Shown: piece after piece, positions 26,352 through 59,706 of the stretch
Position numbering within the stretch: the first letter of the stretch is position 1
How the letters are laid out: each line of letters opens with the position of its first letter
NCBI RefSeq assembly: GCF_009936135.1
Contig: NZ_CP047901.1
Location: forward strand, 152,984-216,983
Reading direction: 5' to 3'
DNA: 64,000 bases
DNA from: Candidatus Chazhemtobacterium aquaticus
Lineage (GTDB): Bacteria; Patescibacteriota; Microgenomatia; UBA1400; Chazhemtobacteraceae
Position numbers and translations under genes: made by a program
The notes under the pieces: model-generated
What the model was told of the DNA's origin: nothing
Databases searched by the model: none
What the model saw: only the letters and a program-made list of their open reading frames with translations

Positions 26352-26369
26352 CCATGCTTATACATTCTA

Positions 26370-26996: not shown

Positions 26997-27037
26997 ACTA
27001 TTACCCTAACAAAACCCAAACACGCAGTCAACTACCT

Positions 27038-27122
27038 GGCGGTGGGGACAGGACTCGAACCTGCAAGCCCTTGCGGGCGCCAGTTTTCAAGACTGGTTCC
27101 TTACCATTCGGAGCACCCCACC
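27038..27122 (-). tRNA. tRNA-Ser (anticodon TGA)
   Basis: Minus strand: acceptor GGTGGGG/CCCCACC, anticodon stem CCAGT/ACTGG with loop CT-TGA-AA, long variable arm, T-loop TTCGAGT. CCA encoded. Confidence 0.75.
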
Positions 27123-27151
27123 AACACCATAATTTTACCATTTTTCAGCCT

Positions 27152-27805
27152 CTAGCCTGCCAAGGCCCATCCACCCACCCATCTTGCACCTCCCTTCTTA
27201 AGCACCTTAGCTACCTCCTTCATAGTTCCTCCTGTTGTCACTACATCATCTACCACCACCAATCTCTTCCCCTTAATCAACTCCATATTTACCAGCTCAA
27301 ATGCTCCCAAAATCTCCCTTTCCCTCTCATTTTTTCCCATCTCTGCCACAGGCCTGGTCGCTTTTTTTCTTTTAACCACTTCCAACACCTTAACACCCCA
27401 ACTCTCTGCCAAAATCTCAGCCAACATCATTGCTTGATTAAAACCTCTCCAGTTCTCTCTTACTCTATGTAGTGGCACCGGCACCACCCCATCCACTCTC
27501 ATAAAAACCTGTCTCCTTCCATACTCTCCCACGCACTCTCTAAGCAACTGGTGTCTAAACCGGTACTTAACTGCCTTAATTACCCTCTGCATCAATCCTT
27601 CATATCTAAAAACTCTAAAAACCGCATCTAGGCCCAACTCTTTACAACACCTCTTGTGAGTCCGACCACCAATCGAACCTTTTCTACACTCAACACAAAC
27701 CTGCCTCGCCTTAACTAACCTCAATCTACACCCCTCACACAACTCCACCCCCTCCTTACCACAACCAGCGCACTTAACTGGAAACAACCACTCCCATCCT
27801 CTCAC
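27152..27805 (-). CDS. comF: ComF-family phosphoribosyltransferase-domain protein
   Basis: N-terminal Cys4 zinc-finger CAGCGKEGVELCEGCR...CVEC, and a C-terminal PRTase motif RLVVVDDVVTTGGTMKE. Confidence 0.65.
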   Translation of the reverse strand: MRGWEWLFPVKCAGCGKEGVELCEGCRLRLVKARQVCVECRKGSIGGRTHKRCCKELGLDAVFRVFRYEGLMQRVIKAVKYRFRHQLLRECVGEYGRRQVFMRVDGVVPVPLHRVRENWRGFNQAMMLAEILAESWGVKVLEVVKRKKATRPVAEMGKNEREREILGAFELVNMELIKGKRLVVVDDVVTTGGTMKEVAKVLKKGGARWVGGWALAG

Positions 27806-27857
27806 TCTTATATCCTAAACCAAAAAAAAGACGCCCCCTAAAGGCGCCTTTCTTTTC

Positions 27858-28247
27858 TTGGTGGAGACGGTGGGAGTCGAACCCACGTCCGCAAACAATC
27901 TTTAATCAGCTTCTACAAGTTTAGTCTGTCTTTACTACTACCCGACAACAGCCGACAAACAGGTTTCATTATCAGGAGATGATTTTTTACTTAAGAAAGA
28001 CTCAATCACCTTCTTTCCTGCAGCTTGAGTATTTTCCACTCCTAGAGTTGCCCCAAGCATCTCCTCTAAGCGTGTCTTAGGCAGCGTAAGCGAAAGCGAA
28101 CGCAGCTTCAGAAGCGGGCTCACCTAAAGGTGAGTCGCTGGCTGAGATGATTTTATCCTCAGTTGTTTTTTTTAAGCCGTTTTACGAGTTGTGCCTAGCT
28201 CGACTTGCCGCTGTCAAAGTTCATCCACGTCAAAATCCTGACGTCCC
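27858..28247 (-). ncRNA. ssrA: tmRNA (ssrA)
   Basis: The minus strand begins GGGGACGTCAGGATTTTGACGTGG... and ends ...GTGGGTTCGACTCCCACCGTCTCCACCA, a tRNA-Ala-like T-arm and acceptor with a G3:U70 pair. The internal tag frame ...GEPASEAAFAFAYAA ends in TAA. smpB lies about 320 bp away. Confidence 0.8.
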
Positions 28248-28311
28248 CAATAGGAAACATTCTATCATCTTTAGCCTCAAAAATCAACTAAATAGCCCGA
28301 TATACCAACTA

Positions 28312-28572
28312 CTAAGCCCTTATCTCTTTAAACCACGTAATTATCTCCGTCAAATCAGTTCCCACAATACCCATGCCCGATGCTTTAATCACCAGCTGCG
28401 CTGTAAACAAATCGAACTCAGCCTCATCCAGATTTTTAAGCACTCCTTTCAAAGACTTCTGCACATCATCCTTTTTTTGGTTTTTTTTCAAAGCTGACCC
28501 CCACTCAAACCCCTCAACACAACTAGGTACCACCTCACTCCAAAATTTATCAGCCAACTTTAACTCACTCAA
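28312..28572 (-). CDS. hypothetical small protein
   Basis: 86-aa ORF overlapping the smpB start by 4 nt. Confidence 0.3.
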   Translation of the reverse strand: MSELKLADKFWSEVVPSCVEGFEWGSALKKNQKKDDVQKSLKGVLKNLDEAEFDLFTAQLVIKASGMGIVGTDLTEIITWFKEIRA

Positions 28573-29033
28573 TTTAGCCTCCTCTTTTTATAAGCTTGCT
28601 CTATTTCTCTCTTCTCACTTCTTTTCCTCAACTCCTCCCTTTTTTCGTACTTCTTCTTCCCCCGAACTAGAGCCAGCTCCACTTTTATTAAACCACGACT
28701 ATTATAGCACTTTAGAGGCACTACCGTCAAACCTTTTTGCCTCATTTTACCCGCCATCTCGTGCACCTCATCCCGCCTCAAAAGCAGCTTTCTTCGCCTC
28801 ACTGGGTCATACTCCTCATCACCTGAATACTCATACGGACTTATCTGCATTCCAACCACCCAAACCTCCTCTTTTCCACCATCATCCAACACCACTACCC
28901 GCGAACCACTCATCGATAACGCCCCCTTCTTCGCACTCTTAACCTCAGCACCCGTCAGCACTATTCCAGCCTGCCACTTATCTAGCACCTCATAATCACT
29001 CAAGGCCTTCTTATTTACCGCTTTCATGACCAT
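28569..29033 (-). CDS. smpB: SsrA-binding protein SmpB
   Basis: LSDYEVLDKWQAGIVLTGAEVKS...ISPYE...YDPVRRRKLLL...KGLTVVPLKCY...KVELALVRGKKKYEKRE matches the SmpB family. Confidence 0.85.
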   Translation of the reverse strand: MVMKAVNKKALSDYEVLDKWQAGIVLTGAEVKSAKKGALSMSGSRVVVLDDGGKEEVWVVGMQISPYEYSGDEEYDPVRRRKLLLRRDEVHEMAGKMRQKGLTVVPLKCYNSRGLIKVELALVRGKKKYEKREELRKRSEKREIEQAYKKRRLN

Positions 29034-29084
29034 ATTCTAACTCAAGTCCACACAAAAACCCTCGTTTACTCACAAAATCAACCT

Positions 29085-30947
29085 TTATATCCCCACCACC
29101 CACACCTCACCCTCAATTACCACCATCAATCTACCTCTCTCTTCATCAAAATCTACCCCCCCTGCCCTACCAAAACCCTCCCAAACCAATTTCTGTAAGT
29201 AATCTCCACTCTCTCTATCAAACTCAACCACCGCCCCCATCTCTCTATCCCAAACCCACACCCTGCCTCTCTCCTCGCTTACCATTATCTTTTCAGGCTT
29301 CTGCCACTCCTCAACTGGCTTTAATTCATAATCAACTACTAAGCCTTGGTTTAATCTCACCACCTCCCCATTACTCGCCAACAACCACACCTCTCCATCA
29401 ATGGCCATATCCACCACTCCACTCATATCCACCACCACACCAGGCGACAAAAATCGCCTTCTCTTACCATAACCTTCCCCCGTTCCTGGAAACCTAAACA
29501 AGTCATCCCCAGCCACCACATACGCATTAATCCCATATCCCTCCACCAACCTACCTACAACTCCTTCCATATCAAGCCTTGCTGTCTCTTCTCCTTCTTC
29601 GCTCACCACCACCACGTCACTCCCGTTTAGAGCCAAAATCTCTTCATCTGCCCCCGCAATATCCACCACCCCACTTAAGCTCTCACCCCCAGCCACCACC
29701 TCACCACTTTTGTCACTCAAGCTTACTCTCACCACCACTCTCTCATCCTCACCCCACAAATACATCCACTCATCCCGAACATCCACTCCTTCCATCCTTA
29801 GTCCCTCCTTAAACACTCCAGCATCCAACCACATCTGCCCCTCTGTCCTCACCTCACCACTCACCTCCCACCACACCTCATCGACTCTCTTGGCCAACTC
29901 CGCCCACTCTTCACTCAACCTACCTTCTACAAATCTATCTCCCTGACTCACTATCTCTTCTTTTGCCTCTATAACCAAACTCCTCGATCTCACCGCGTTC
30001 ACACTCTTAAGTCTCACCGCTTCCTCCAGCGCATACTCAATCGGTTCGCTCACCCCCTCAAACTCCTCACGTTCCTTCATCACCGATCTTCTTCCAGCTC
30101 CAACCACCACACTTACTAAAAATATCACCAAAAACACACTCCCCAATACCATCGCCCACCGTCTCTTTCCACTCTCTTCACTTCGCAGCGTAATTCCTCT
30201 ACCACCCAATCCCAACTTTCTCTTTAATCTAGCTAAACCTCTCTTCCAACCAGGTTCTTCATTAACTACCATCACCTGTGCTTTTGATGGCTCTATCCCA
30301 CTTATCTCAGGCTCAACCAACTCAATAATGCCCTCTTGCTCATTATCAACAACCTCCTCAACTAACTTAATTCTTTTTACCTTTACCACCAACCCTGCCA
30401 CCTTAGCTCCATCCTCCATCTCTCCCATCTTAGCCACCATCTCAACCTCACTCGCCCCCTCACTCCAAATACCATTCACAAATTCCTCACTCCCTATCAC
30501 CACTTCATCCTCTTCCAACAACCAGCCAGACACCGCTTCTCCACCTCCCCAAACCTCCACTCTCTCCCCTCCTCTCACTAACACCACCTTCATACCTCCC
30601 CAACCTCCTATATACACTCCTCGCTTCCCCTCATCATCAACCAATACCTGACCCACCACTACGCTTCCAATATCTCCTATCTCACTTCTTAACCTGTCCA
30701 CTTGTTCAACCACCCACTCCCATCCTTCTTTTTCACCCAACACAAAACTCTCCACCACCTCCTCCATCAATCCTCTCCCCTTCTCTTTTACTCCCCCCTC
30801 GCCACTCATCACCTCCTCCAAACTCATTACCACCAACATCGCCCGACCCTTCTCACCACCACTCTCCCAACGCACCTGAGACCAAACCTCATCACTAGCA
30901 CCACCCACCACCTGCTTCCACTCAATTCCCAGTCTCTTATCTCTCAT
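29085..30947 (-). CDS. hypothetical Gly/Val/Glu-rich membrane-anchored protein
   Basis: 620-aa ORF with one central TM (AMVLGSVFLVIFLVSVVVGAG). Its composition is driven by the G/T-rich coding strand. It is far longer than any antisense ORF. Confidence 0.4.
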   Translation of the reverse strand: MRDKRLGIEWKQVVGGASDEVWSQVRWESGGEKGRAMLVVMSLEEVMSGEGGVKEKGRGLMEEVVESFVLGEKEGWEWVVEQVDRLRSEIGDIGSVVVGQVLVDDEGKRGVYIGGWGGMKVVLVRGGERVEVWGGGEAVSGWLLEEDEVVIGSEEFVNGIWSEGASEVEMVAKMGEMEDGAKVAGLVVKVKRIKLVEEVVDNEQEGIIELVEPEISGIEPSKAQVMVVNEEPGWKRGLARLKRKLGLGGRGITLRSEESGKRRWAMVLGSVFLVIFLVSVVVGAGRRSVMKEREEFEGVSEPIEYALEEAVRLKSVNAVRSRSLVIEAKEEIVSQGDRFVEGRLSEEWAELAKRVDEVWWEVSGEVRTEGQMWLDAGVFKEGLRMEGVDVRDEWMYLWGEDERVVVRVSLSDKSGEVVAGGESLSGVVDIAGADEEILALNGSDVVVVSEEGEETARLDMEGVVGRLVEGYGINAYVVAGDDLFRFPGTGEGYGKRRRFLSPGVVVDMSGVVDMAIDGEVWLLASNGEVVRLNQGLVVDYELKPVEEWQKPEKIMVSEERGRVWVWDREMGAVVEFDRESGDYLQKLVWEGFGRAGGVDFDEERGRLMVVIEGEVWVVGI

Positions 30948-31001
30948 ACCTCTATATTAACAAGCCCGCCCTAATCAAACTAATCCCAATCCTCCAAAAG
31001 G

Positions 31002-31232
31002 TTAAAGTGTTCCCATCGCCCAAATCAATCCTACAGCTGCTCCAGCCATTAATCCTAAACCCATCACCTTCAAAGGCACTTCCAACACTCCATTTAAGGT
31101 TCTCGCCATCAACACTATCTGTCTCCACACAATCACTGAAAAAATCAAATACACTCCAAAGGCTGCCAAGTAAAACCACTTTACCAGTATCCAAATCTGT
31201 CCTGTCTCTCCTGTTATTTCTCCTAAGTCCAT
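31002..31232 (-). CDS. small two-TM membrane protein
   Basis: 76-aa ORF. Confidence 0.25.
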   Translation of the reverse strand: MDLGEITGETGQIWILVKWFYLAAFGVYLIFSVIVWRQIVLMARTLNGVLEVPLKVMGLGLMAGAAVGLIWAMGTL

Positions 31233-31271
31233 TTTTTACTCAACTTAATAATTTATACATCTTCCATCCAC

Positions 31272-31922
31272 CTATTTTAATCTACCTTCTAACTCCTCTT
31301 GTTGCTCCTCCTGCTGAAGCATATACAGAATCTCCACCACTCTTCCCGGATTTGGCACTCTCAAGAAATCAAACTCTCTCTGCTCTGCCGCCGTCTGAAT
31401 AAACACATCACCATAATTAAAAATGGCTGCCATACCCCCAGTCTGCACAAAGTTAACATCTTGTACATTAGCAATCTGTGTTACCGCCAAGTTCCTATGA
31501 ATCAGCCCGTGAAAATCAATATCCACTACTCGTTCATCAGTCACTATATACACATTAAAGTACCAATTTAAGAACTTCTCCAATACGTAAGCCAACACCA
31601 ATAAATACCACAGCACTGCGGTTGCCAATTGAAACCTCACCGGCAACCATGAAAACGGCAAATACTCCCAAAACGCTGGCATCAAGGCCATTCCCACTGC
31701 TACCACTATCCAACCTAAATTAACCACTGGATGCTGTCTCAACAATAGAATAATTTTCTCGTCTGGCTCCTGGGTCTCAAACCGCAAGTTAGGAGGAGTA
31801 ACAGCGAAAGCACTCCATACAGCACTATCTCTCTTCTTTGACAACTCCTCAAACACCGGACTATACCGACCCCCTCGTCTTCTTCCTTCACCTTTTTTCT
31901 TTGCGTCAAATACCTGAGGCAT
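31272..31922 (-). CDS. membrane-flanked bacterial PH domain protein (bPH_2 / YdbT-like)
   Basis: Two TM helices followed by ...YIVTDERVVDIDFHGLIHRNLAVTQIANVQDVNFVQTGGMAAIFNYGDVFIQTAA, typical of DUF304/bPH_2. Confidence 0.5.
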   Translation of the reverse strand: MPQVFDAKKKGEGRRRGGRYSPVFEELSKKRDSAVWSAFAVTPPNLRFETQEPDEKIILLLRQHPVVNLGWIVVAVGMALMPAFWEYLPFSWLPVRFQLATAVLWYLLVLAYVLEKFLNWYFNVYIVTDERVVDIDFHGLIHRNLAVTQIANVQDVNFVQTGGMAAIFNYGDVFIQTAAEQREFDFLRVPNPGRVVEILYMLQQEEQQEELEGRLK

Positions 31923-31940
31923 ATACTTAATTGTACCTCA

Positions 31941-33695
31941 TCACTTACTCTCAATATTAAACAAACCGCTCTTCACCGCTACCCTACCCGGCGCCCTCAA
32001 GTTAAACGCCTTGTAAAACTCCTCTCCCTTAATTGATATCGATCCCTTATCCGTCTGAAAATTAACCGAGTCAGTCACCCCATCATCTCGGTAAGTCACA
32101 CTCACCCCAGTCACTCTTCCATACCCACCCTTACTCTTAAGCTCAGATATTGAATACGGATTACCTCCCCAACAAGATCCAATTGGAGTCACCCGGTCAT
32201 CACTTTCACCTCTCTGATAAACCACTACCCAAGCATTAATAATGTCAGCCATCTCCTCTCCCGACAGCCATGGATTATCTCTTCCGCACATATCACCACT
32301 TCTACTCTTGTACCAAGCCTTGTAAAACCACGGACTGCCCGCCCTACTCTCCCATGCATTTGACGTCCAACCACTCCTTCCTCCCTCAGCATCCCAAAAC
32401 CCCGGCGTTGTGTGACCCAATGTCTGATAAGACTCCTGATATCCTCCTGACGTGCTGGCATACCATGCACTAATAATCTCCCCCGTATTGTTACTCACCA
32501 AAATCTTGCCCTTAGTATTATTCACTGCCTCCCCCCACTTAGCGTCCCCCACCTTGCTTGATCGATAGACCTGACAACTCTCTGTTGTACAAATCGAACC
32601 AGACGCTGATCTGTTTCCCATCCGCCACCCCACATATGACAACGCATAGCTTCTTGCCGCAATCGCCTGTGCCTCTAACGCCGCCATCCCTCCTTTATCC
32701 GCCCAAGAAGAGGGCATCTCTGAAATTCCTCTCATATAATTATCCTCAAAAGGCAAGCTCCCAACCGAGGTATTGATCGAAAAACTTGTATCAACCGTCT
32801 CAATCCTTACATTCCCGTAATAAGCCTTTAAAATCTCTTCCGCTGATTGTCCAGCCTTAGCCCTCCCATAGGCTCCATACTGACTCATTCCCTTAAAATG
32901 GGGCGCTCCAAAAGAAAATACTGCAAAACTTCCTCCAGGAGCTGAATTCCGAAAACCCTCTATTGAAGCGTTGTAATCATCCGCCAACGGCACATCACCT
33001 ACGGTCGTACTAAACGTCTCTGCCTTTGCTGACAAAACCGATTGTTGTAAAGCTGACAAACTCGCAATCTTACCCTCCAAACTCTTCTGATACTCCTTCG
33101 CCCCCGCAATCTCTTTCTTAAAGAAATCCGCCTCCTTATCCAAACTCGCTTGCAACCCCGACAACCTCGTTTTACTTGCCTCCAAATCAGCCCTATCAGA
33201 CTCGAGCCCTGCAATCTCCTCCGCTAATGATGCAATCATCACCCTGTCCTGATTCACTGCCACCTCCCGATAACCCAACTCTTGCTGCAACTCACCACTC
33301 CCCACCGCCAACAACCACTCTACTGCTCCTGAAGAAGTCCTCATCCTCTTGTAATATCCTTTTGTTTTCTCAGCCAACAGCAGGTACTGAACCGCCAAAT
33401 CTTTCTCCCTATCCTCTATCTCATCCGCTAAATCATCCAGCCTATCTTCCGCAGCTCCAATCTGCCTCTGAATTGAAGCAATCTCTCTCTCCAACCTATT
33501 TACTTCAGACTCTAGTGGTGCCGTCGCTGCCTTGCTATCTGCCAAGGCTTTAGACAAGTCGGTAATCTGCCTGCCTAAACATTCATACAGCGGCTCACCT
33601 CCCAAACCCTCACAATTTGTTTCTGCCACCACCGGCTTCGTCAACCAACCCAGCAAACCCACCAATAGCAACACTAGTATTACTCTCCATCTCAT
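31941..33695 (-). CDS. SpoIID/LytB-domain peptidoglycan-modifying protein with N-terminal signal peptide and coiled coil
   Basis: Signal peptide MRWRVILVLLLVGLLGWLTKPVVA. Long coiled-coil region. SpoIID-like core ...AALEAQAIAARSYALSY...AWYASTSGGYQESY. Confidence 0.6.
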   Translation of the reverse strand: MRWRVILVLLLVGLLGWLTKPVVAETNCEGLGGEPLYECLGRQITDLSKALADSKAATAPLESEVNRLEREIASIQRQIGAAEDRLDDLADEIEDREKDLAVQYLLLAEKTKGYYKRMRTSSGAVEWLLAVGSGELQQELGYREVAVNQDRVMIASLAEEIAGLESDRADLEASKTRLSGLQASLDKEADFFKKEIAGAKEYQKSLEGKIASLSALQQSVLSAKAETFSTTVGDVPLADDYNASIEGFRNSAPGGSFAVFSFGAPHFKGMSQYGAYGRAKAGQSAEEILKAYYGNVRIETVDTSFSINTSVGSLPFEDNYMRGISEMPSSWADKGGMAALEAQAIAARSYALSYVGWRMGNRSASGSICTTESCQVYRSSKVGDAKWGEAVNNTKGKILVSNNTGEIISAWYASTSGGYQESYQTLGHTTPGFWDAEGGRSGWTSNAWESRAGSPWFYKAWYKSRSGDMCGRDNPWLSGEEMADIINAWVVVYQRGESDDRVTPIGSCWGGNPYSISELKSKGGYGRVTGVSVTYRDDGVTDSVNFQTDKGSISIKGEEFYKAFNLRAPGRVAVKSGLFNIESK

Positions 33696-33770: not shown

Positions 33771-34154
33771 ATGAAAAAACTTTACTTTAATCTTCTCACC
33801 CTTATCACTACATCTCTTCTTTTTCCCTCATCAGTTCTCGCTCAAAACCCTGGCGATCTGTTCTGTAACGATAGCTCCGGCATCGCCACTGCTATCGGCT
33901 GTGTCTCACTTGAGCCTGGTGACTTTGCCGGAGACATCCTAAGATTCTCTGTTGGCATTGGTGGTGGTATTGCCCTCCTTCTCCTTCTTTACGGTTTTAC
34001 CCTACTCACCATGTCAGCTGGATCGCCCGACAAAGTCAACGCTGCTAAAGAAATCATCACCTCCGCCATCGGTGGTCTTATTTTTGTCACCATGGCCACT
34101 GTCCTCATGGGTTTTATCGGTATCAACATTCTTAATCTACCCGGCCTTAATTAA
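33771..34154 (+). CDS. VirB2/TrbC-like pilin paralogue P1 (Sec signal peptide plus two hydrophobic helices)
   Basis: Signal peptide ...SSVLA|QNPGD. Mature part has helix 1 (SVGIGGGIALLLLLYGFTLLTM), a polar loop (SAGSPDKVNAAKE), helix 2 (IITSAIGGLIFVTMATVLMGFIGI) and a GINILNLPGLN tail. It is a paralogue of the nine downstream genes. Confidence 0.55.
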   Translation: MKKLYFNLLTLITTSLLFPSSVLAQNPGDLFCNDSSGIATAIGCVSLEPGDFAGDILRFSVGIGGGIALLLLLYGFTLLTMSAGSPDKVNAAKEIITSAIGGLIFVTMATVLMGFIGINILNLPGLN

Positions 34155-34158
34155 TAAA

Positions 34159-35310
34159 ATGCGTACAACAATCTTCCTTTTCATCTTCCTCACAAACCTC
34201 TTTCTTTTCTCCGCTTCCCCCGCTCAAGCCGAATGTTGCGCCGCCAGCAGTTCTACATGCACCGGACCCTTCACCTGCGAAGGAGGCGAACTTATCTGTA
34301 CCACCTCTGCCGAATGCCCTCGCGATCCTTCCTGTTTTGACAGTGGCCAACCTTGCAACTCACTAAAGCCCTGCTGCGAAGAGGGTTTTGCCTGTTCTCC
34401 AACTACTTCAACCTGTCTGTCAACCGCTGCCCCCACCCCAGGCCCAGAACCAAGACCTATTGAGTGTGCACTCGCCCACATCGGCGCCGGCAGGGGAGGC
34501 CAAAACTGGGACGTCACTTACTGTGTCGCCGCCGACACTATTGAGGACCTCCATCGCGTCGCCCAAATCACCGGCATCTGCCGCCGCGGCGCCACCAGCA
34601 TTCTCGGCCAGTATGTCAACAACTGCTCTTGTCATGACGACGATTGGTACGACAACCCGCTCACTGCCGTGGGGGCTCGAGCGGTCTGCTGTGTCGCCGG
34701 ACTAGGTCGCTGCCCGTCAGCTGTTCGCACTACCCAAAGTGTCTCCGGCCAATTCCCCACTCTTTTTGACCCAAACACCAACCGCTACTACACCTGTTTC
34801 ACTCTCCAAGGCATTGATCGAAACGTTGGTATCATGGAAGTTCAGATCAAAGACGCCGATGGGCAACAAGTCTGTAGTGTTCCTCGCGTCACCGTCGCTC
34901 CGGGCAACTACAGCTGGTGGGAATACTTTGACAACACCCTTGAAACCCGCTTCGACACCTCTCTGCCTTTCTACGAAGACCCCACCGAACAAGATCGCTA
35001 CGATCTCACCTGTAGTACTGTCACTGGCAAGCGCGGCATCAACACCGCCATTGGCTGCATTGCCGTCAAACCAGTCGAATTTACTCAAGATTTCCTCACT
35101 GTCAGTATAGGCATTGGTGGTGGTATAGCTCTTTTACTGCTTCTCTATGCCACTGCTCTTATTACCCTTTCTCAAGGCAATCCTCAAAAAATCCAGTCGG
35201 GACAACAAATCATCGCCGCCGTCATCCAAGGCCTCATCCTCATTACCCTCTCAGTAGTTATGCTTAACTTCCTTGGTATTAACATTCTCAACCTCCCTGG
35301 TTTACAATAA
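34159..35310 (+). CDS. pilin-fusion P2: signal peptide, ~290-aa cysteine-rich extracellular domain, C-terminal VirB2-like pilin module
   Basis: The true start is the ATG at 34159 (MRTTIFLFIFLTNLFLFSASPAQA|ECC...). The ORF-track start at 33952 overlaps P1 in another frame. The mature N-domain has ~30 Cys (ECCAASSSTCTGPFTCEGGELICTTSAECPRDPSCF...). The C-terminal ~90 aa (GINTAIGCIAVKPVEF...SIGIGGGIALLLLLYATALITL...GINILNLPGLQ) is near-identical in pattern to P1. Confidence 0.55.
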   Translation: MRTTIFLFIFLTNLFLFSASPAQAECCAASSSTCTGPFTCEGGELICTTSAECPRDPSCFDSGQPCNSLKPCCEEGFACSPTTSTCLSTAAPTPGPEPRPIECALAHIGAGRGGQNWDVTYCVAADTIEDLHRVAQITGICRRGATSILGQYVNNCSCHDDDWYDNPLTAVGARAVCCVAGLGRCPSAVRTTQSVSGQFPTLFDPNTNRYYTCFTLQGIDRNVGIMEVQIKDADGQQVCSVPRVTVAPGNYSWWEYFDNTLETRFDTSLPFYEDPTEQDRYDLTCSTVTGKRGINTAIGCIAVKPVEFTQDFLTVSIGIGGGIALLLLLYATALITLSQGNPQKIQSGQQIIAAVIQGLILITLSVVMLNFLGINILNLPGLQ

Positions 35311-35314
35311 AGCC

Positions 35315-35653
35315 ATGCTACTTGCTCAAGCTGACATTACCAATGTCCCTAACCCTGCCACCAACTTTACCGACCCCGCCACCTGGAATATTGCTGGCCT
35401 TCTTACTGGGGGTACTGGAAGTTTTAATCTTGTCAACCTAGCCTTCTTCCTCGTCGGCTTCGTCTTCTTCTCAAACCTAGTCATCGCCGCCGTCACCTAT
35501 ATTATGTCCGAAGGTTCTCCCGATAACGTCTCCAAAGCCAACTCGCGCTTCACCACTGGATTAATTGGCCTCATCGTTGTCTTTGCCAGCTTTGTTATAG
35601 TCCGTTTAGTTGCTGCTCTTTTCAGTCTTGATGCTAGCGTTCCAATAAACTAG
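35315..35653 (+). CDS. VirB2/TrbC-like pilin paralogue P3
   Basis: Two-helix hairpin ...LVNLAFFLVGFVFFSNLVIAAVTYIMSEGSPDNVSKANSRFTTGLIGLIVVFASFVIVRLVAALF. The start is uncertain, either 35273 or 35315. Confidence 0.45.
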   Translation: MLLAQADITNVPNPATNFTDPATWNIAGLLTGGTGSFNLVNLAFFLVGFVFFSNLVIAAVTYIMSEGSPDNVSKANSRFTTGLIGLIVVFASFVIVRLVAALFSLDASVPIN

Positions 35654-35662
35654 AAACAAAAC

Positions 35663-36061
35663 ATGAAAACAAAAAAACTTCTCATTCTTCCACTAACCAC
35701 TCTCTTCTTTATCTCAAATCCCCATCTTGCCCACGCTCAACTCAATCCCTTTCAAACCAACCTTAAAGACATGTTTCCTGCTGCCCAAAACCTTCCCAAT
35801 CCAGGCAGTGGTGGCGTTCTCTCTACTTTCCTCAACCCAATCGTTAGTTTCGTTCCCATCGTCACTGGCATTCTCTCCTTCATTATTATCATCATTGCCG
35901 GCATCAAATATATAAGTCACGCAGGCAATGCCCAAGAAACCAAAAAAGTCAACGATATGATAACATACGCCTTAGTAGGACTGGCCTTGTCAGCCATCGC
36001 TTTCTGGATCACCCGCCTTCTCTTTATGGTCGGCGCTGGTGACTCTCAAAACTTATTCTAA
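35663..36061 (+). CDS. VirB2/TrbC-like pilin paralogue P4
   Basis: Signal peptide ...NPHLAHA|QLN, followed by two hydrophobic helices separated by the loop HAGNAQETKKVNDM. Confidence 0.5.
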   Translation: MKTKKLLILPLTTLFFISNPHLAHAQLNPFQTNLKDMFPAAQNLPNPGSGGVLSTFLNPIVSFVPIVTGILSFIIIIIAGIKYISHAGNAQETKKVNDMITYALVGLALSAIAFWITRLLFMVGAGDSQNLF

Positions 36062-36063
36062 CC

Positions 36064-36435
36064 ATGAACCTAATCAAACTCCTTATACCCGTCGTTTACG
36101 CTCAAACCGATCCTATTGGCACCATTCAAGCTCCCGCCTCTATTGTTACTGGACCCAGCGATATCTACAAAATATTTAACTCAGTCGTTAATCTCTTAGT
36201 TGTCGTTGCTGGTATCTGGTTTCTTGTCCAAATCATTCTAGCCGGTTTCAACTACATCACCGGTGCTGGTGATAGCAATAAAACTGGCGAAGCCATGAAA
36301 AAAATCACCGACTCTGTCATTGGTCTTGTGGTTGTCGCCGCCGCCTTTATCATCACCTACATTGCTGGTGCTCTCTTTTTTGGCACAGGCTTTAACATCC
36401 TACAACCAACCATAAAAACCATTACTGATTTCTAA
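36064..36435 (+). CDS. VirB2/TrbC-like pilin paralogue P5
   Basis: Short leader MNLIKLLIPVVYA|QTD. Helix 1, then loop GAGDSNKTGEAMKKITDS, then helix 2. Confidence 0.55.
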   Translation: MNLIKLLIPVVYAQTDPIGTIQAPASIVTGPSDIYKIFNSVVNLLVVVAGIWFLVQIILAGFNYITGAGDSNKTGEAMKKITDSVIGLVVVAAAFIITYIAGALFFGTGFNILQPTIKTITDF

Positions 36436-36440
36436 TAATC

Positions 36441-36812
36441 ATGAATCTAGTCAAACTTTTCATCCCCCAAGCTCACGCTGCATTCACCCAAGGAGGTGAT
36501 ATTGTCGGCCCGGGATCTCATCAAAACATCAGCTCCGCTACTGCTGGCACCTCACTTGAAACCCTCATTAGCACTCTTCTTGGTGCACTCACTGCCATCG
36601 CTGGTTTAGGTTTCCTCATCTACTTCGTCATTGGCGGCATCAACTGGATCACCGCTGGTGGTGACCAACAAAAACATCAAAAGGCCACCAAACAGCTTAC
36701 CGACGCCGCCATAGGCCTTATCGTCGTCGTCGTCGCCTACGCTATCGCCGGTATTGTTGGCACAGTCCTTGAAGTTGATATATTAAATCCAGCCAGCCTA
36801 CTCGGCTTATAA
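36441..36812 (+). CDS. VirB2/TrbC-like pilin paralogue P6
   Basis: Leader MNLVKLFIPQAHA|AFT. Conserved core GGINWITAGGDQQKHQKATKQLTDAAIGLIVVVVAYAIAG. Confidence 0.55.
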   Translation: MNLVKLFIPQAHAAFTQGGDIVGPGSHQNISSATAGTSLETLISTLLGALTAIAGLGFLIYFVIGGINWITAGGDQQKHQKATKQLTDAAIGLIVVVVAYAIAGIVGTVLEVDILNPASLLGL

Positions 36813-36819
36813 CCACAAT

Positions 36820-37158
36820 ATGTTTATCAAATCCGCCTACGCTGCCATCTCCAACCCTGCCCTCCAAAATTTTGGTACCGACACTACTGGTGGAGCCGGT
36901 TTAGCTTTCTATGTTTCTCAGCTCTGGAAAACCCTCGTCGTCGTTGGCGGCCTCGCCTTCCTCCTTTACACCATTATTGGCGGAATCAACTGGGTCATTG
37001 CCGGAGGCGACAAAACCAAAGTCGAATCCGCTCAAAAACACCTCACCAACGGACTCACCGGCCTTATCGTTCTTGCCGCTTCTTACGCCATCATGGCCGT
37101 GGTCAGTGATGTTGTTGGTATCAATATTCTTAATATTGATTGGACCTTTGGCAACTAA
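36820..37158 (+). CDS. VirB2/TrbC-like pilin paralogue P7
   Basis: Leader MFIKSAYA|AIS. Core GGINWVIAGGDKTKVESAQKHLTNGLTGLIVLAASYAIMA. Confidence 0.55.
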   Translation: MFIKSAYAAISNPALQNFGTDTTGGAGLAFYVSQLWKTLVVVGGLAFLLYTIIGGINWVIAGGDKTKVESAQKHLTNGLTGLIVLAASYAIMAVVSDVVGINILNIDWTFGN

Positions 37159-37162
37159 AACC

Positions 37163-37477
37163 ATGAATATTATCAAACCCGTCTACGCTCAAACATCAGA
37201 TATTGATAGCCAAGTCACCGGCTTCTTTGCTTATAGCAACGTTGGTGATCTTGTCAGCACCCTCGTCACCACTGCCATTGTCGTTGGTGCCCTTGCCACC
37301 CTTATCTATCTCATCATAGGTGGTATCAACTGGATCACCTCAGCCGGAGATACCCAAAAAGTCGAATCCGCTCAAAAACACCTCACCAACGCCCTTATTG
37401 GCCTAGTAATTCTCGTCGCTGCCTATGCCATTTTCACTGTCGTTAAAGCTTTTCTTGGTATCGGTGATGAAATCTGA
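37163..37477 (+). CDS. VirB2/TrbC-like pilin paralogue P8
   Basis: The true start is the ATG at 37163 (MNIIKPVYA|QTSD). The ORF-track start at 36911 overlaps P7 in another frame. Core GGINWITSAGDTQKVESAQKHLTNALIGLVILVAAYAIF shares an identical ~34-nt stretch with P7. Confidence 0.55.
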   Translation: MNIIKPVYAQTSDIDSQVTGFFAYSNVGDLVSTLVTTAIVVGALATLIYLIIGGINWITSAGDTQKVESAQKHLTNALIGLVILVAAYAIFTVVKAFLGIGDEI

Positions 37478-37543
37478 CCCATTTGACAGGGTCAAACCCA
37501 TCTGAATATAATCAGCTTAACCATTAATTATCTTATCCAAAGC

Positions 37544-37888
37544 ATGAAACTACTTGAATCGCTTATCAAACCAGTACAAGCCCAGTCCGATCTTGGTGTT
37601 CCCGAACCAGATTACGCTGTTAGTAGCATTGGCAACCTTCTCTCTGGTCTAGTTAACGCCGCTATCGTTATCGGCGCTCTCGCCGCCTTCCTCTATCTCA
37701 TCCTTGGTGGCCTTCAATGGATCACCGCCGGTGGAGATAAAACCAAAACCGAAGAAGCTCAGAAAAAAATCACTAATGCCATTATCGGCTTAGTCATTAT
37801 TGCTGCTGCCTATGCCATCATCACCGTCGTTGTCCAATTCCTTGGAATCGGTGAAATCAGCAGTCTTTCTCTTCCTGCCATCGAATAA
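37544..37888 (+). CDS. VirB2/TrbC-like pilin paralogue P9
   Basis: Leader MKLLESLIKPVQA|QSD. Core GGLQWITAGGDKTKTEEAQKKITNAIIGLVIIAAAYAIIT. Confidence 0.55.
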   Translation: MKLLESLIKPVQAQSDLGVPEPDYAVSSIGNLLSGLVNAAIVIGALAAFLYLILGGLQWITAGGDKTKTEEAQKKITNAIIGLVIIAAAYAIITVVVQFLGIGEISSLSLPAIE

Positions 37889-37916
37889 CTTTATTTTCAA
37901 CAAAGTTAATCAAAAG

Positions 37917-37941
37917 AACCTTCCACCAGGAAGGTTTTTTT
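37917..37941 (+). terminator. Rho-independent terminator between pilin genes P9 and P10
   Basis: AACCTTCC-ACCA-GGAAGGTT forms a perfect 8-bp stem with a 4-nt loop, immediately followed by a T7 run, in the 80-bp gap after P9. Confidence 0.65.
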
Positions 37942-37968
37942 GTTATCCCGCCATGCTACAATCTGCTC

Positions 37969-38322
37969 ATGAAGCTAAACTTCACCGCTCATGCCCAAGA
38001 CTGGGCTAGTATTGACCCAAACTGCGTTGCTGGACCCAACAACGATGTTGCCACCATCCAGGGCTTCAAATGTATCATCACTAATCTACTAGCTATCATC
38101 GCCCCCATCATCACCCTCGTCGCCATTGGCATGATCATCTTAGGCGGCGCCAAAATGATAGCAGGCGCAGATAACCCCAAAGCCGTTGACGAAGCCAAAA
38201 AAATCATCACCTTCGCCATCATTGGTGTCATTGGTATTGCTGCTGCCTGGATCATCCTCGTCCTCATTCAAGAATTTACCGGCGCTCCCGTCACCCAGTT
38301 CCAAATCATCACCAATCCTTAG
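37969..38322 (+). CDS. VirB2/TrbC-like pilin paralogue P10 (divergent, Cys-containing)
   Basis: Leader MKLNFTAHA|QDW. Two helices with the loop GGAKMIAGADNPKAVDEAKKII. Two Cys in the mature N-region. Confidence 0.5.
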   Translation: MKLNFTAHAQDWASIDPNCVAGPNNDVATIQGFKCIITNLLAIIAPIITLVAIGMIILGGAKMIAGADNPKAVDEAKKIITFAIIGVIGIAAAWIILVLIQEFTGAPVTQFQIITNP

Positions 38323-47363: not shown

Positions 47364-48353
47364 ATGCCCGTCCAACAGCATCCCATCCCCCAAAACGTCA
47401 CCAGCTATCAATTCCGCTTAGTTGGCGACATGACTCTCAAACAATTTCTCCAGCTAGCAGCTGGCATAGTCATTGGTCTAGTTATCTACGCCACCCCCCT
47501 TCCTTCCTTCTTCAAATGGCCTCTCATCTCTATCATTGTTGGCCTTGGTGCTGCCATTGCCTTTGTCCCTGTTCAGGGCCGACCCTTGGATCAATGGATT
47601 GTTGCCTTTATCCGCTCCATCTACGCTCCCACCATCTATGTCTGGCAAAAACCCAACAACCAACAACCATCTCTAAACCAAGCTCCCACCTCCATTACGC
47701 AGGCTCTACAATCCTCTCCCCCCACTAGTCCTTCCCCCACTGCCACTCAACCTCAAACCTCAAAAATCGAGCGCCCTAATTTAGTCCCTCAAATCCACAC
47801 CTTAACCAGAGCTACTCCACCCACTCCCAACCCTACTCCACCACCCCAACCCGAACCCCTCATCCCCACTAGCCAAGATATCAAAAAATCAGCCAAAAAC
47901 GTATTTGCTTCACCACCAAAACCAATTGCTGTCACTCCGCAATCTCATCAAAACACCAATCATCAATCAACTCAATCCTCTTCTAAGCCCGCTCCAACCA
48001 CCTCTACCGCTACTGTTTCCGATACACCAGCTCAACCAGGAACCTCCGCTTCCTTCTCAACCGACCTCCCCATCCCCAGCACCCCTCAAACCCCCAACAC
48101 TATCGTTGGCATGACTCTCTCCCCACAGGGTAAAATCCTGGAATCAGTCATTGTTGAGATCCTTAAAAACGGTCAGACCATCCGCGCCACCAAAAGCAAC
48201 AAGCTCGGCCAGTTTCTCTTTGCCAAACCTCTTGATGACGGAATCTTCCAGATTACTGCCGACAAAGACGGTTTCACTTTTCCCCGCTTCGATCTTAAAC
48301 TAGACGGTCAAATCATTCCCCCAATTAAACTCCAAGCCACAGGTACAAAATAA
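47364..48353 (+). CDS. PrgI/VirB3-like T4SS membrane protein fused to a Pro/Thr-rich linker and a C-terminal CarboxypepD_reg-like beta-sandwich domain
   Basis: N-terminal ~100 aa (SYQFRLVGDMTLKQFLQLAAGIVIGLVIYATPLPSFFKWPLISIIVGLGAAIAFVPVQGRPLDQWIVAFIRSIY) fits the PrgI/VirB3 two-TM pattern and precedes VirB4 as in Gram-positive-type T4SS. The C-terminus ...ILESVIVEILKNGQTIRATKSNKLGQFLFAKPLDDGIFQITADKDGFTF resembles CarbopepD_reg/Cna-B folds. Confidence 0.45.
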   Translation: MPVQQHPIPQNVTSYQFRLVGDMTLKQFLQLAAGIVIGLVIYATPLPSFFKWPLISIIVGLGAAIAFVPVQGRPLDQWIVAFIRSIYAPTIYVWQKPNNQQPSLNQAPTSITQALQSSPPTSPSPTATQPQTSKIERPNLVPQIHTLTRATPPTPNPTPPPQPEPLIPTSQDIKKSAKNVFASPPKPIAVTPQSHQNTNHQSTQSSSKPAPTTSTATVSDTPAQPGTSASFSTDLPIPSTPQTPNTIVGMTLSPQGKILESVIVEILKNGQTIRATKSNKLGQFLFAKPLDDGIFQITADKDGFTFPRFDLKLDGQIIPPIKLQATGTK

Positions 48354-49538: not shown

Positions 49539-51437
49539 ATGGCTTTCCTGCCCTTTTTAACCAAAAAAACACCCACCCCTAACTCTGCTCCACCACCACC
49601 CAACCTTGCTACCACACCCAAAGCCAGTCCGCTTACTCCACCACTGTCTCAACTAGACAATCAACACACCTCTCCAAATCAACCTCAAAAACCTGGTGGT
49701 GAAGTCAATATCCAAGATATCATCGCTCCTCCTTCAATTGAGGTCGATTTTTCTCACCTAAAAATTGGCTCAACCTACTTCCGTACCATTTTTATTGCCG
49801 GTTACCCCCGCTATGTCTCTGCCAACTGGCTTTCCCCCCTTATCAATTTCGATCACAGTATCGACGTCTCCATGTTCATCTATCCAGTCGAGGTCAAAGG
49901 CACTCTCGAACAACTCCGTCGTCGTATTGCTGAAATGGAGGCCGAGATATCAGCTGACATCGAACGCGGCCGCATCCCTCAAGCCTCAACCCAAGCCCAA
50001 CTAGAAGATGCCAACTCCCTCCAAGAACAACTCGTCAAAGGTATCGAGCGCTTCTTCCAGTTCTCTCTCTATATCACCATTTCTGCAGACTCCAAAAAAG
50101 AACTAGACACCGTCACCAGCCAAGTCCAAAGCCTTCTCGGATCTTTAATCATAGTCAGTAAAATTGCCTCGTATTCTCAAGTTGAAGCCTTCAAATCCAC
50201 CCTTCCATACTGTAAAGACAAGCTTCTTGTTACCCGCAATATGGACACAACCGCTCTCTCCACTACTTTCCCATTTACCAGCTCCGAACTCACCGACAAT
50301 AAAGGCGTCCTTTTCGGAATCAACGAACACAACGAGTCACTCGTCATTTTTGATCGCTTCTCTATGGAAAACGCCAACATGCTCATTCTCGCCACTTCCG
50401 GGGCCGGCAAATCCTACGCCGTCAAAATCGAAATTATGCGCTCCCTCATGTTTGGCACTCATGTCATCATCATCGATCCAGAAAATGAATATGAAATGCT
50501 TTGTAAGGCCGTCGGCGGTAACTACATTGCTTTTAATGTCAGCAGCAATCATAAAATCAACCCCTTCCAACTAGCCGACCCAGACAACAGCTCTGAAGAC
50601 GAGATGGGTTACAAATATCTCTATCTCAACTCTCTGCTCAAAATCATGCTCGGATCTATGTCGGCCGACGAAGACGCCATTTTAAACCAGGCTCTCGTCC
50701 TAGCGTACCAGCAAAAAGGCATCACCCAAGACCCACTCACTCACACTAAAGAACCTCCCCGCATGGAGGACCTTTACAAGGCCTTAATTGGTATGGAGGA
50801 GCCAGAAGCCATTTCTCTATCTCGCCGTCTTGAAAAATACGTTAAAGGGGCCCTTAAAGGCATCTTCGATCAACAAAGCAATGTCTCTATCGACTCACCC
50901 ATCACTGTCTTTACTCTCCGCGAACTCGCCGACGAAATTCGCCCCATTGTCATGTTCATGATCCTGGACTACATCTGGACCCAAATCCGTAAAGAACTCA
51001 AGCGCCGTCTTCTAGTTGTCGACGAAGCCTGGTATCTCATGCGCCACGAAGACTCTGCCAAAGTCCTTCAGGGTTTGGTCAAGCGCGCTCGCAAATACTA
51101 CCTTGGCGTCTCCATCATTTCCCAAAACGCCGATGACTTTTTAGGCTCTCCCTATGGCAAAGCCATTGTCACCAACTCGGCCATTCAGTTTTTAATGAAA
51201 CAATCGCCTGCCGCCATCGACGAAGTTGCCCAAGTCTTCTATCTCTCCCAAGGAGAACGCTCCCTCCTCCTTTCAGCCAATGTCGGAGAAGGCCTCTTCT
51301 TTGCAGGCCAAAACCATATTGCTCTCAGAGTTGTCGGTTCTCCCGATGAACACGCTCTTGCCACCAGTAAACCTCAAGACATCCTCGCCCGCCAACAGCA
51401 GGCCAAGAAGGAACAATCTCTTTCCTCTGCCCTCTAA
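49539..51437 (+). CDS. virB4: VirB4-like T4SS ATPase (central and C-terminal ATPase domains)
   Basis: Begins with a Pro-rich segment, then ...IAPPSIEVDFSHLKIGSTYFRTIFIAGYPRYVSANWLSPLI.... Walker A LILATSGAGKSYAVK. Walker B-like LLVVDEAWYLM (the DEAW characteristic of VirB4/TraC). Confidence 0.7.
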   Translation: MAFLPFLTKKTPTPNSAPPPPNLATTPKASPLTPPLSQLDNQHTSPNQPQKPGGEVNIQDIIAPPSIEVDFSHLKIGSTYFRTIFIAGYPRYVSANWLSPLINFDHSIDVSMFIYPVEVKGTLEQLRRRIAEMEAEISADIERGRIPQASTQAQLEDANSLQEQLVKGIERFFQFSLYITISADSKKELDTVTSQVQSLLGSLIIVSKIASYSQVEAFKSTLPYCKDKLLVTRNMDTTALSTTFPFTSSELTDNKGVLFGINEHNESLVIFDRFSMENANMLILATSGAGKSYAVKIEIMRSLMFGTHVIIIDPENEYEMLCKAVGGNYIAFNVSSNHKINPFQLADPDNSSEDEMGYKYLYLNSLLKIMLGSMSADEDAILNQALVLAYQQKGITQDPLTHTKEPPRMEDLYKALIGMEEPEAISLSRRLEKYVKGALKGIFDQQSNVSIDSPITVFTLRELADEIRPIVMFMILDYIWTQIRKELKRRLLVVDEAWYLMRHEDSAKVLQGLVKRARKYYLGVSIISQNADDFLGSPYGKAIVTNSAIQFLMKQSPAAIDEVAQVFYLSQGERSLLLSANVGEGLFFAGQNHIALRVVGSPDEHALATSKPQDILARQQQAKKEQSLSSAL

Positions 51438-58962: not shown

Positions 58963-59706
58963 ATGCTTTCATTTCTCACTGACCCCATTGTCCACCTACT
59001 AATCTTTCTTTACGGCAACCTAGGCCAGAGTCTGGGTCTCGCCATCATAGTTCTTACCCTCTTGGTCCGAACTGCCCTTCTTCCCATCTCGCTACCCGCA
59101 CTTAAATCAGCTCGAAAAATGCAGGAGCTTAAGCCTCAACTTGACAAACTTAAGAAAAAACATAAAGACAAGACCAAACTCCAACAGGCTCAACTTGAGC
59201 TCTATCGTCACCATGGCATCAATCCCCTAAGCGGCTGCCTACCCCAACTTGTTCAAATCGTTGTTCTTATTGCACTTTATCAAGCTTTTATCGGTTTTAT
59301 CACCAGTGGCCAATTCAACGGTTCAGCCCTTCACACCTCTTTTCTCTGGCTTGACCTTTCTCAGTCTGATCCTTATTACATATTGCCAATTCTAGCCGGT
59401 GGGACTCAACTACTTTATTCACTTGCCATGCAAACCGGCTTAGAATCCCACCTCAAAGCTCCTAAACAAAAATCACCTCGTCAAAAGGAAGAAGACTCAC
59501 TTGAAATGGCTCAGTCCATTCAACAACAAATGATCTATCTTATGCCTCTTATGACCCTCATTATCGCCACTCGTTTTCCTTCTGGACTTGCTCTCTACTG
59601 GGTTGTTACCACCATTTATTCATTCGTCCAACAACTCATTATTTCCGGACCTGGTGGACTTACTCACTACAAGAACTTAATACTTGCTAGGTTTAATTTT
59701 CGCTAA
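58963..59706 (+). CDS. yidC: membrane protein insertase YidC (short Oxa1-like form)
   Basis: ...AIIVLTLLVRTALLPIS...KMQELKPQLDKLKKKHKDK...LYRHHGINPLSGCLPQLVQIVVLIALYQAF... matches YidC conserved TM2/TM3 motifs. Confidence 0.8.
   Translation: MLSFLTDPIVHLLIFLYGNLGQSLGLAIIVLTLLVRTALLPISLPALKSARKMQELKPQLDKLKKKHKDKTKLQQAQLELYRHHGINPLSGCLPQLVQIVVLIALYQAFIGFITSGQFNGSALHTSFLWLDLSQSDPYYILPILAGGTQLLYSLAMQTGLESHLKAPKQKSPRQKEEDSLEMAQSIQQQMIYLMPLMTLIIATRFPSGLALYWVVTTIYSFVQQLIISGPGGLTHYKNLILARFNFR

Follow-up and report, generated by a model that had tools for sequence, protein, structure and literature searches.

The 64,000-nucleotide window of the genome of Candidatus Chazhemtobacterium aquaticus, a member of the Microgenomatia (Patescibacteria), considered here (contig NZ_CP047901.1, positions 152,984 to 216,983 of the forward strand; window coordinates are used throughout) carries, at 33771-38322, ten tandem genes, P1 to P10, every product of which matches the type IV secretion system (T4SS) pilin family PF18895 (T4SS_pilin). 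Seven of the ten products exceed the gathering score of this family (26.6 bits): P1, P4, P5, P6, P8, P9 and P10 reach 30-52 bits, and P2, P3 and P7 lie slightly under the cut-off with 19.7-25.2 bits (E = 1.7e-5 to 8.8e-4). Seven of the ten genes (P3 and P5-P10) encode no canonical signal peptide and begin with leaders of 4-13 amino acids (aa), and it is the nature and possible processing of these short leaders that is addressed here. The genes of the array are as follows, with an arrow marking the leader junction:

33771..34154, plus strand: P1 pilin, 127 aa, PF18895 E = 1.2e-7; canonical 24-aa signal peptide (33771-33842), VLA↓Q; two Cys in the N-tail
34159..35310, plus strand: P2 pilin, 383 aa, PF18895 E = 8.8e-4, below the gathering cut-off; canonical 24-aa signal peptide, AQA↓E
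35315..35653, plus strand: P3 pilin, 112 aa; mini-leader MLLA↓Q (35315-35326), with MLLAQA↓D as the alternative reading
35663..36061, plus strand: P4 pilin, 132 aa; canonical 25-aa signal peptide, AHA↓Q
36064..36435, plus strand: P5 pilin, 123 aa, PF18895 E = 2.4e-9; 13-aa leader MNLIKLLIPVVYA↓Q (36064-36102)
36441..36812, plus strand: P6 pilin, 123 aa, PF18895 E = 6e-14; 13-aa leader MNLVKLFIPQAHA↓A (36441-36479)
36820..37158, plus strand: P7 pilin, 112 aa; 8-aa leader MFIKSAYA↓A (36820-36843)
37163..37477, plus strand: P8 pilin, 104 aa, above the cut-off of the NCBIfam family NF045849; 9-aa leader MNIIKPVYA↓Q (37163-37189)
37544..37888, plus strand: P9 pilin, 114 aa; 13-aa leader MKLLESLIKPVQA↓Q (37544-37582)
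37969..38322, plus strand: P10 pilin, 117 aa; 9-aa leader MKLNFTAHA↓Q (37969-37995); two Cys in the N-tail

The six leaders of P5-P10 read exactly as they were written in an earlier note on this DNA, made from the sequence alone; they are as short as the note said, except that its range of 8-14 residues is actually 8-13. The note was also correct that P1, P2 and P4 carry canonical leaders (..VLA↓Q, ..AQA↓E and ..AHA↓Q, respectively) and that the same Ala-X-Ala (AxA)-type junction is present on the short ones. It overlooked P3, which has the shortest leader of the array, the 4 residues of MLLA↓Q; because the orthologues of P3 read MLLAQN.. and MLLAQAN.., LLA↓Q is taken to be the conserved junction of this gene. 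The seven junctions of the short leaders (VYA↓Q, AHA↓A, AYA↓A, VYA↓Q, VQA↓Q, AHA↓Q and LLA↓Q) conform in their c-region to the -3/-1 (AxA) rule and lack Pro at +1. The hydrophobic cores are minimal, as had been noted: the longest uncharged run comprises 7 residues in P5, 4 in P6 and 3 in P3 and P7-P10, against 10-16 in P1, P2 and P4, and some of the short leaders hold an internal Lys, Glu or Gln. A classical Sec h-region, with about 7-15 hydrophobic residues after a basic n-region, is not present in these leaders.

The start codons of the short-leader genes are secure, and the leaders are under purifying selection. In-frame stops are located 7, 4, 11, 19 and 38 codons upstream of P5, P6, P7, P9 and P10, respectively, with no ATG, GTG or TTG between. 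The earlier note had fixed the starts by the abutment of each gene on its upstream neighbour, which is observed for P5-P8 and not for P9 and P10 (spacers of 66-80 nt), and which as an argument fails for P8-P10. P8 is the only gene with an open upstream frame, 86 codons long, containing an ATG and a GTG and encoding a hydrophobic stretch. A start in this frame (..MLLVSIFLILIGPLATKT-MNIIKPVYAQ) was ruled out: its ATG is an ACG in L013, one of the two related loci (L013 and L014) used for this comparison, and the L013 substitutions in the upstream frame are 0 synonymous and 4 non-synonymous, but 4 and 0 in the overlapping frame of P7. The leader codons of the window and of L013/L014 differ by 26 synonymous and 11 non-synonymous changes. 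In these relatives the P10 leader is unchanged while 11 of the next 12 codons differ, the P7 leader has only synonymous changes, and MLLAQ of P3 is kept with synonymous changes while the downstream sequence has diverged. The gene calls of NCBI (QHO63182-QHO63189) have the same lengths, P3 being QHO63182 and P5-P10 being QHO63184-QHO63189 (exact matches). The security of the starts follows from these stops, the refuted P8 frame, the synonymous pattern and the matching calls. Upstream initiation at a non-ATG codon, which the earlier note had named as fatal to its proposal, is contradicted by the in-frame stops and the substitution pattern.

Short leaders proved to be common in the pilin arrays of Microgenomatia, not a peculiarity of this locus. 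Stop-to-stop analysis of the open reading frames (ORFs) of seven syntenic Microgenomatia loci found them repeatedly (for example YS-stop-MLAKEALA↓V, stop-MSLLNSIIKPIHA↓A, MSPVYA↓A, MNLLVPKVYA↓Q and MKILA↓Q), many of them with a stop 0-11 codons upstream of the Met. When 156 distinct N-regions were searched de novo for motifs, the result was [P/K/S]-[V/A/L]-[L/Y/F/H]-A↓[Q/A], and 141 of the regions have Ala at -1. The distribution of leader lengths among the N-regions, with the number of clusters at 50% identity, was as follows:

Leader of at most 6 aa: 26 N-regions with a confident motif, 12 clusters
Leader of 7-10 aa: 19 N-regions, 9 clusters
Leader of 11-14 aa: 16 N-regions, 7 clusters
Leader of 15-19 aa: 9 N-regions, 4 clusters
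Leader of at least 20 aa: 48 N-regions, 24 clusters
No confident motif: 38 N-regions, 22 of the 78 non-redundant clusters

About half of the sampled relatives have leaders of at most 14 residues ending in [V/A/L]-[Y/L/H/F]-A↓[Q/A]. With a matrix built exclusively from leaders of at least 20 aa, a site was recovered among the first 15 residues in 40% of pilins with short N-termini; for the N-termini of non-pilin proteins of these loci the share was 1.9%, and for shuffles it was 4% (Mann-Whitney p = 9e-19). The preferences at -3, -1 and +1 (V/A, A and Q/A) are equal in short and canonical leaders, and the invariant Ala aligns over nine short- and long-leader paralogues in an alignment made without P2. 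P10 is the final pilin ahead of the large secreted protein; leader lengths among P10 (9 residues) and its positional orthologues are 6, 9, 11, 18, 19, 27 and 31 residues, and all of these leaders end 2-8 residues ahead of an invariant Trp. Because these leaders end at an aligned position, the ends of the short leaders are regarded as homologous in position to the cleavage site of bona fide signal peptides. A scan for related loci with P9 alone retrieved only L001 and L002, which are distant and have canonical leaders.

In the AlphaFold2 (AF2) model of P5, residues 31-66 and 71-106 form a helical hairpin with a predicted local distance difference test score (pLDDT) of about 90, and the leader and the N-tail are modelled with low confidence and without structure. 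The counts of Lys and Arg are 0-1 in N-tails, 2-4 in inter-helix loops and 0-1 in C-tails, and owing to this charge distribution both termini are placed outside the cell under the positive-inside rule. The N-tails of the short-leader pilins comprise 21-46 aa, the median stand-alone N-tail being 27 aa, and at least two Cys were present in 6 of 61 of them versus 37 of 48 canonical pilins (Fisher p = 3e-13). The canonical-leader pilins mostly have Cys pairs in the N-tail or large Cys-rich ectodomains as in P2, where the signal peptide is followed by a 286-aa ectodomain with 24 Cys and then by the pilin hairpin. A Cys pair is also found in the P10-type tails, of which there are orthologues with Sec signals. 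Foldseek comparison of the AF2 model with the PDB gave nothing significant (best E = 2, with the archaeal conjugation pilus 8dfu in 12th place), the hairpin being too simple to discriminate, and a profile of 90 relatives matched no solved pilin among the PDB sequences.

The same junction was found inside fused pilins. A profile search of 1.84 billion cluster representatives yielded 107,069 relatives, and the best 150 of these (P0121-P0270; loci L015-L017) are all multi-hairpin proteins with 2-17 units per ORF, P0128 having 17 pilin units in 1775 aa. Two main classes of linker were recognised: at a site threshold of at least 8 bits, those of 8-29 aa (n = 229) contained a site in 0% of cases versus 0.7% in shuffles, and those of 40-59 aa (n = 65) in 40% versus 2.2%. 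In the longer linkers, 13-29 residues separate the site from the helix ahead of it, and a median of 28 residues separates it from the next first transmembrane helix (TM1), a distance that matches the median stand-alone N-tail; a Met is nearby in only 4 of 30 internal sites. The di-pilin P0192, for example, starts with MRLLA↓QNLN.. and has the internal sequence ..LITSVHA↓QAPVNIG.., and it is an uninterrupted ORF under genetic code 11 on contigs from three independent sequencing runs. A conserved AxA↓Q junction inside a polyprotein is difficult to account for unless it is processed there or was inherited very recently from split genes. No description of multi-hairpin polypilins was found in the literature searched. 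The window array, in which P1-P8 are separated by spacers of 2-10 nt and P9 and P10 are preceded by spacers of 66-80 nt, looks, in its layout, like a split polypilin. Read-through or frameshift fusion among the genes of the window itself was considered and rejected, as consecutive genes are in different frames, except for P3 and P4, which have a TAG and three codons between them; these are separate genes.

A C-tail motif, G-[IF]-N-I-L-[NQ] (D-I-L-N in P6), was observed after the second transmembrane helix (TM2) in P1, P2, P5, P6 and P7 (34120-34151, 35276-35307, 37120-37137 and 36393-36407). In the fused polypilins the hydrophobic stretch equivalent to this motif leads directly into the internal AxA junction.

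The explanation favoured here, to which a probability of about one half is assigned, is that the short N-termini are vestigial signal peptides, the pilins being exported via TM1 by a YidC-type route and trimmed by type I signal peptidase (SPase I). The leaders would have lost the n- and h-regions and kept the c-region, that is, the part read by SPase I. The pilin would form a hairpin of two helices, its ends both lying outside the cell and its Lys-rich loop inside, and the short N-tail of 21-46 aa, nearly free of Lys and Arg, would cross the membrane together with TM1 as a reverse signal-anchor. The likely export route would be the YidC insertase, or YidC together with Sec, and an insertase of this family is encoded in the window, 21 kb from the pilin cluster:

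58963..59706, plus strand: YidC/Oxa1-family insertase, 247 aa (PF02096 60KD_IMP, E = 1.5e-50)

The general SPase I would then cut after [V/A/L]-x-A, freeing a peptide of 4-13 residues and producing a mature N-terminus, often Gln, identical in position to that of the paralogues still using a full Sec signal. Pilins whose exported part is long or holds Cys that form disulfides (P1 and P2) would have retained a canonical leader, and in the polypilins the preceding helix with its C-tail would present the junction between hairpins.

Housekeeping SPase I is favoured as the enzyme because the non-pilin secreted proteins of the window share the junction (the signals of the 1116-aa protein, the 596-aa protein and the SpoIID-domain protein end in TVFA↓Q, PAHA↓Q and PVVA↓E), because no S26-like ORF was found in the window or in nine related loci, and because there is no prepilin, double-glycine or lipobox site. 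A type IV prepilin (class III) leader was rejected, since Ala is at -1 throughout, polar residues follow the site (QTDPIG.., QSDLG..) and there is no G↓F..E pattern; a double-glycine leader for a C39 peptidase and a lipoprotein signal were rejected because none of the ten proteins has GG at -2/-1 or Cys at +1, and a twin-arginine translocation (Tat) leader was ruled out from the sequence. The contacts of SPase with its substrate are almost limited to Ala-X-Ala, with additional main-chain contacts at positions P5, P1' and P3' of the substrate (PMC4704075), so the mini-leaders would retain roughly what the enzyme contacts.

Several points weigh against this explanation. To our knowledge, SPase I substrates with leaders of 4-6 residues are unprecedented in bacteria. 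In the array of locus L010 (9587-12160), most pilins have no AxA junction (MANIIGK.., MPSNIEQ.., MADLIDF.., MAINIPE..), and processing is for this reason not considered obligatory for the family; the 22 of 78 non-redundant clusters with no confident motif belong here too, and the sample on which all these frequencies are based is centred on relatives of the window. We infer cleavage, as well as TM1/YidC export and the identity of the peptidase. Moreover, anchoring of the H-region in the membrane is apparently indispensable for orienting the SPase substrate (PMC4704075), and here TM1, which lies about 27 residues downstream of the site, is the sole anchor available.

In a rival reading, the short N-termini are not cleaved at all and remain part of the mature pilin, the sequence hydrophobic-hydrophobic-A-Q being kept for structural reasons such as packing at the pilus surface or the membrane interface. 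This is regarded as unlikely. In its favour, leaders of 4-6 residues offer a peptidase little to bind, SPase positioning is said to depend on anchoring of the H-region (PMC4704075), and some lineages without any motif presumably still have functional pilins. However, orthologues with full Sec signals would lose exactly the residues in question, so that mature proteins would differ at a strongly conserved position; the residue preferences fit both the -3/-1 rules of SPase and the canonical leaders; and the motif is found between the hairpins of fusions, where the role of an N-terminal cap makes no sense. The AF2 model gives residues 1-30 no defined structure and, as a model, argues neither way.

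A dedicated pilin peptidase, located in the T4SS cluster or elsewhere and reading K/P-V-Y/H-A↓Q in analogy to TraF for TrbC and PilD for type IV prepilins, appears improbable; the earlier note had raised recognition by a specific peptidase as one option. Such an enzyme could be among several conserved neighbours with no recognisable family or solved-structure match (1116, 596, 842, 620, 373 and 345 aa), and the recurrence of Lys/Pro at -4/-5 and of Tyr/His/Leu at -2 extends beyond the bare AxA rule. It is not favoured, however, because the junction is common to non-pilin secreted proteins and to the canonical Sec leaders of the family, and no G↓F/E+5, GG or lipobox motif is present. The search for a TraF-like peptidase or signal peptidase paralogue that the note had suggested was run with SipS and LepB query sequences on the ORFs of the window and of nine related loci (L001-L011) and revealed no S26/TraF-like match, a weak negative. 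No homologues of TraQ, TraX or TraF were seen, and four uncharacterised proteins of the cluster had no match among the PDB sequences.

Similarly doubtful is the reading of the 13-residue leaders (P5, P6 and P9) as very compact Sec/signal recognition particle signals entering through SecYEG, with MNLIK as the n-region, an h-region of about 7 residues and VYA as the c-region, which corresponds to the minimal Sec signal of the earlier note. In P5, Lys at position 5 does precede LLIPVVY, an uncharged run of 7 residues, and there is an AxA site; orthologues hold a length of 13-15 residues. The uncharged runs of P6 and P9, however, are just 4 and 3 residues long, and Gln, Glu or Lys occurs within these leaders. 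A signal of this kind, and then perhaps a very weak one, would apply at most to the 13-residue leaders and could not cover those of 4-9 residues (P3, P7, P8 and P10), the continuum of 4-31 residues or the internal junctions, most of which have no Met. Finally, true starts further upstream, or genes delimited wrongly, which would give longer leaders, are very improbable: the open frame of P8 with its hydrophobic stretch would suit this idea, but that extension is refuted by its substitution pattern and lost ATG, the other genes are bounded by in-frame stops 3-19 codons upstream (38 for P10) with no ATG, GTG or TTG between, stop-bounded short starts recur in seven other loci, and the NCBI calls agree.

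A broader and more tentative proposal goes beyond the favoured explanation, namely that the cleavage cassette (approximately substrate positions P5 to P1'), with no n- or h-region of its own and placed either at an N-terminus or between hairpins, may constitute a new class of signal-peptidase substrate, with arrays and polypilins forming an interconvertible, modular "cut-here" system for an essential and diversified pilus. In a stronger version of this proposal, a dedicated peptidase of the T4SS cluster would do the cutting. If the mini-leaders are cut, SPase would be trimming an N-tail exported without a signal peptide, according to the logic known from mitochondrial Cox2, which would bear on what SPase I substrates really need. 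We know of no earlier bacterial case of a signal peptidase trimming an exported N-tail free of a signal peptide. Cutting would also supply a rule for the mature N-termini in a family of more than 100,000 cluster representatives, and it would connect the tandem pilin genes with the multi-hairpin polypilins. Signal-peptide predictors, which expect an h-region, may miss mini-leaders. If they are not cut, the conserved stub would be an unexplained structural element of the pilus. Arrays of the L010 type, with no motif, offer a natural contrast for whether processing matters.

The array is followed by genes for the 1116-aa secreted protein, the 596-aa polytopic protein, an insertion sequence (IS) integrase, PrgI, a VirB4-type ATPase, an M23 hydrolase, dnaN and dnaA. 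The T4SS beside the array is of the Gram-positive type, and the synteny is kept in seven other loci. Its recognisable components are:

47364..48353, plus strand: PrgI (VirB3-like) T4SS component (PF12666, E = 1.6e-8)
49539..51437, plus strand: VirB4/TraG-type T4SS ATPase (PF19044, E = 2.5e-30; CagE_TrbE_VirB, E = 7.7e-5)
51483-54104: M23 peptidase (cell-wall hydrolase)

The IS-type integrase (rve / rve_3; 46224-47282, minus strand) lies within the T4SS cluster, between a conserved 842-aa minus-strand gene and PrgI, and is missing from the same position in the syntenic loci L005, L007 and L008. A conserved block upstream of the array and divergent from it (25679-33695, minus strand) encodes one protein with a SpoIID domain, one of about 215 aa (bPH_2), a DUF5657 protein and one of about 640 aa with no known function, often followed by SmpB; the block is shared with L005, L007, L008, L011, L012 and L014 and may be part of the same system. 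GC skew ranges from -0.1 to -0.64 across the window (1-64000), and the cumulative skew drops monotonically irrespective of gene orientation, the extreme G/C strand disparity of this genome and its relatives having been published already (PMC7143001).

The genes that open such arrays form a distinct class (P2, 34159-35310; L007, 7537-8535; L010, 629-1435; L011, 9486-10004), in which the signal peptide is canonical and a conserved Cys-loop, G-I-x-T-A-[IL]-G-C-[IV], stands immediately before TM1. Some of them, as P2 with its 286 aa and 24 Cys, also encode a large Cys-rich ectodomain, and the class may represent an adhesin-pilin or a minor pilin.

Signals for transcription were recognised around P9 and P10:

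37483..37512, plus strand: sigma-70 consensus promoter TTGACA-18-TATAAT (12/12) upstream of P9, conserved in L013/L014
37917..37945, plus strand: intrinsic-terminator-like hairpin AACCTTCC-ACCA-GGAAGGTT with a T-run, between P9 and P10
37954..37962, plus strand: putative extended -10 element TGcTACAAT ending 6 nt before the ATG of P10, conserved in L013/L014

With the extended -10 element just past the terminator hairpin, P10 may be translated from a leaderless mRNA. In the spacers of P1-P8 (34155-37162), no Shine-Dalgarno-like sequence was seen (..taaccATG, ..aaaaccATG), which suggests translational coupling or Shine-Dalgarno-independent initiation for these genes.

Arrays of this kind have been described in Patescibacteria as 2-11 divergent VirB2-like pilins of PF18895 (about 25% identity) beside a monoderm-type T4SS and near dnaA (PMC12102498; also PMC12857230), and they are especially abundant in Microgenomatia (PMC12102498). 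In the single Patescibacterium examined genetically, the T4SS pilin arrays are essential for epibiotic life (PMC10633639, Wang et al. 2023; PMC12857230). The array of the window belongs to the same family and has the same architecture. It differs in that 7 of its 10 genes have no canonical signal, whereas the array proteins of Saccharibacteria have been described as all having N-terminal signal peptides (bioRxiv 10.1101/258137, McLean et al.). Leader length, cleavage and fused pilins are not mentioned in the papers on Patescibacterial arrays, and the words "signal peptide", "leader" and "cleav" do not occur in PMC12102498 (Quinonero-Coronel et al. 2025). Full-text literature searches found no description of ultrashort leaders, the conserved junction or fused pilins. 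Prior work covers the arrays together with their T4SS context and their position near the origin, and it is the mini-leaders and the polypilin junctions for which no description was found.

The Mbov_0395 family of pilin-like conjugal transfer proteins (NCBIfam NF045849), known from integrative and conjugative elements of Mycoplasma, is likewise associated with a monoderm T4SS. All pilins of the window but P2 match it (E = 4.5e-11 to 2.8e-3, mostly weak), and at the curated cut-off of 40 bits P8 passes with 42.3 bits and 9 of 10 are below. These matches are in some tension with the assertion in print that VirB2-like pilins are absent from monoderm MPF-FATA systems (PMC12102498).

The pilins VirB2, TrbC and TraA of proteobacteria are similar in being small two-helix hairpins with a basic loop, encoded alongside VirB3 and VirB4 homologues, and a hairpin of two hydrophobic helices with a short basic loop is what the AF2 model and the 2-4 Lys/Arg of the loops indicate here. 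With regard to PF04956 (VirB2/TrbC) itself, the scores are sub-threshold, the best being 19.7 bits for P4 and 14.9 for P5 against a gathering score of 27.9. The leaders of VirB2 and TrbC comprise 47 and 36 residues, respectively. The F-pilin TraA has a 51-residue leader and is inserted independently of Sec, with a requirement for LepB (PMC7555446). In proteobacteria it is the general leader peptidase that cuts the propilins, at an A↓Q or A↓A junction, and the likeness to the window pilins extends to this junction. The difference is in length, with leaders of 36-51 residues versus 4-13 here, which bears out the view in the earlier note that such short leaders are unusual for VirB2-type pilins, and in the host of the window being a monoderm.

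The closest counterpart of the proposed processing may be mitochondrial Cox2, which bears a presequence of 12-15 aa, undergoes export by Oxa1 and is cleaved by Imp1/Imp2 (PMC5086520). It, too, is a two-helix protein with both ends exported and a non-classical presequence, and its N-tail is moved with TM1 by a YidC-family insertase and then trimmed by homologues of type I signal peptidase. The analogy is one of mechanism only, with no homology: Cox2 needs the chaperone Cox20, whereas the leaders of the window reach down to 4 residues and follow the bacterial AxA rule.

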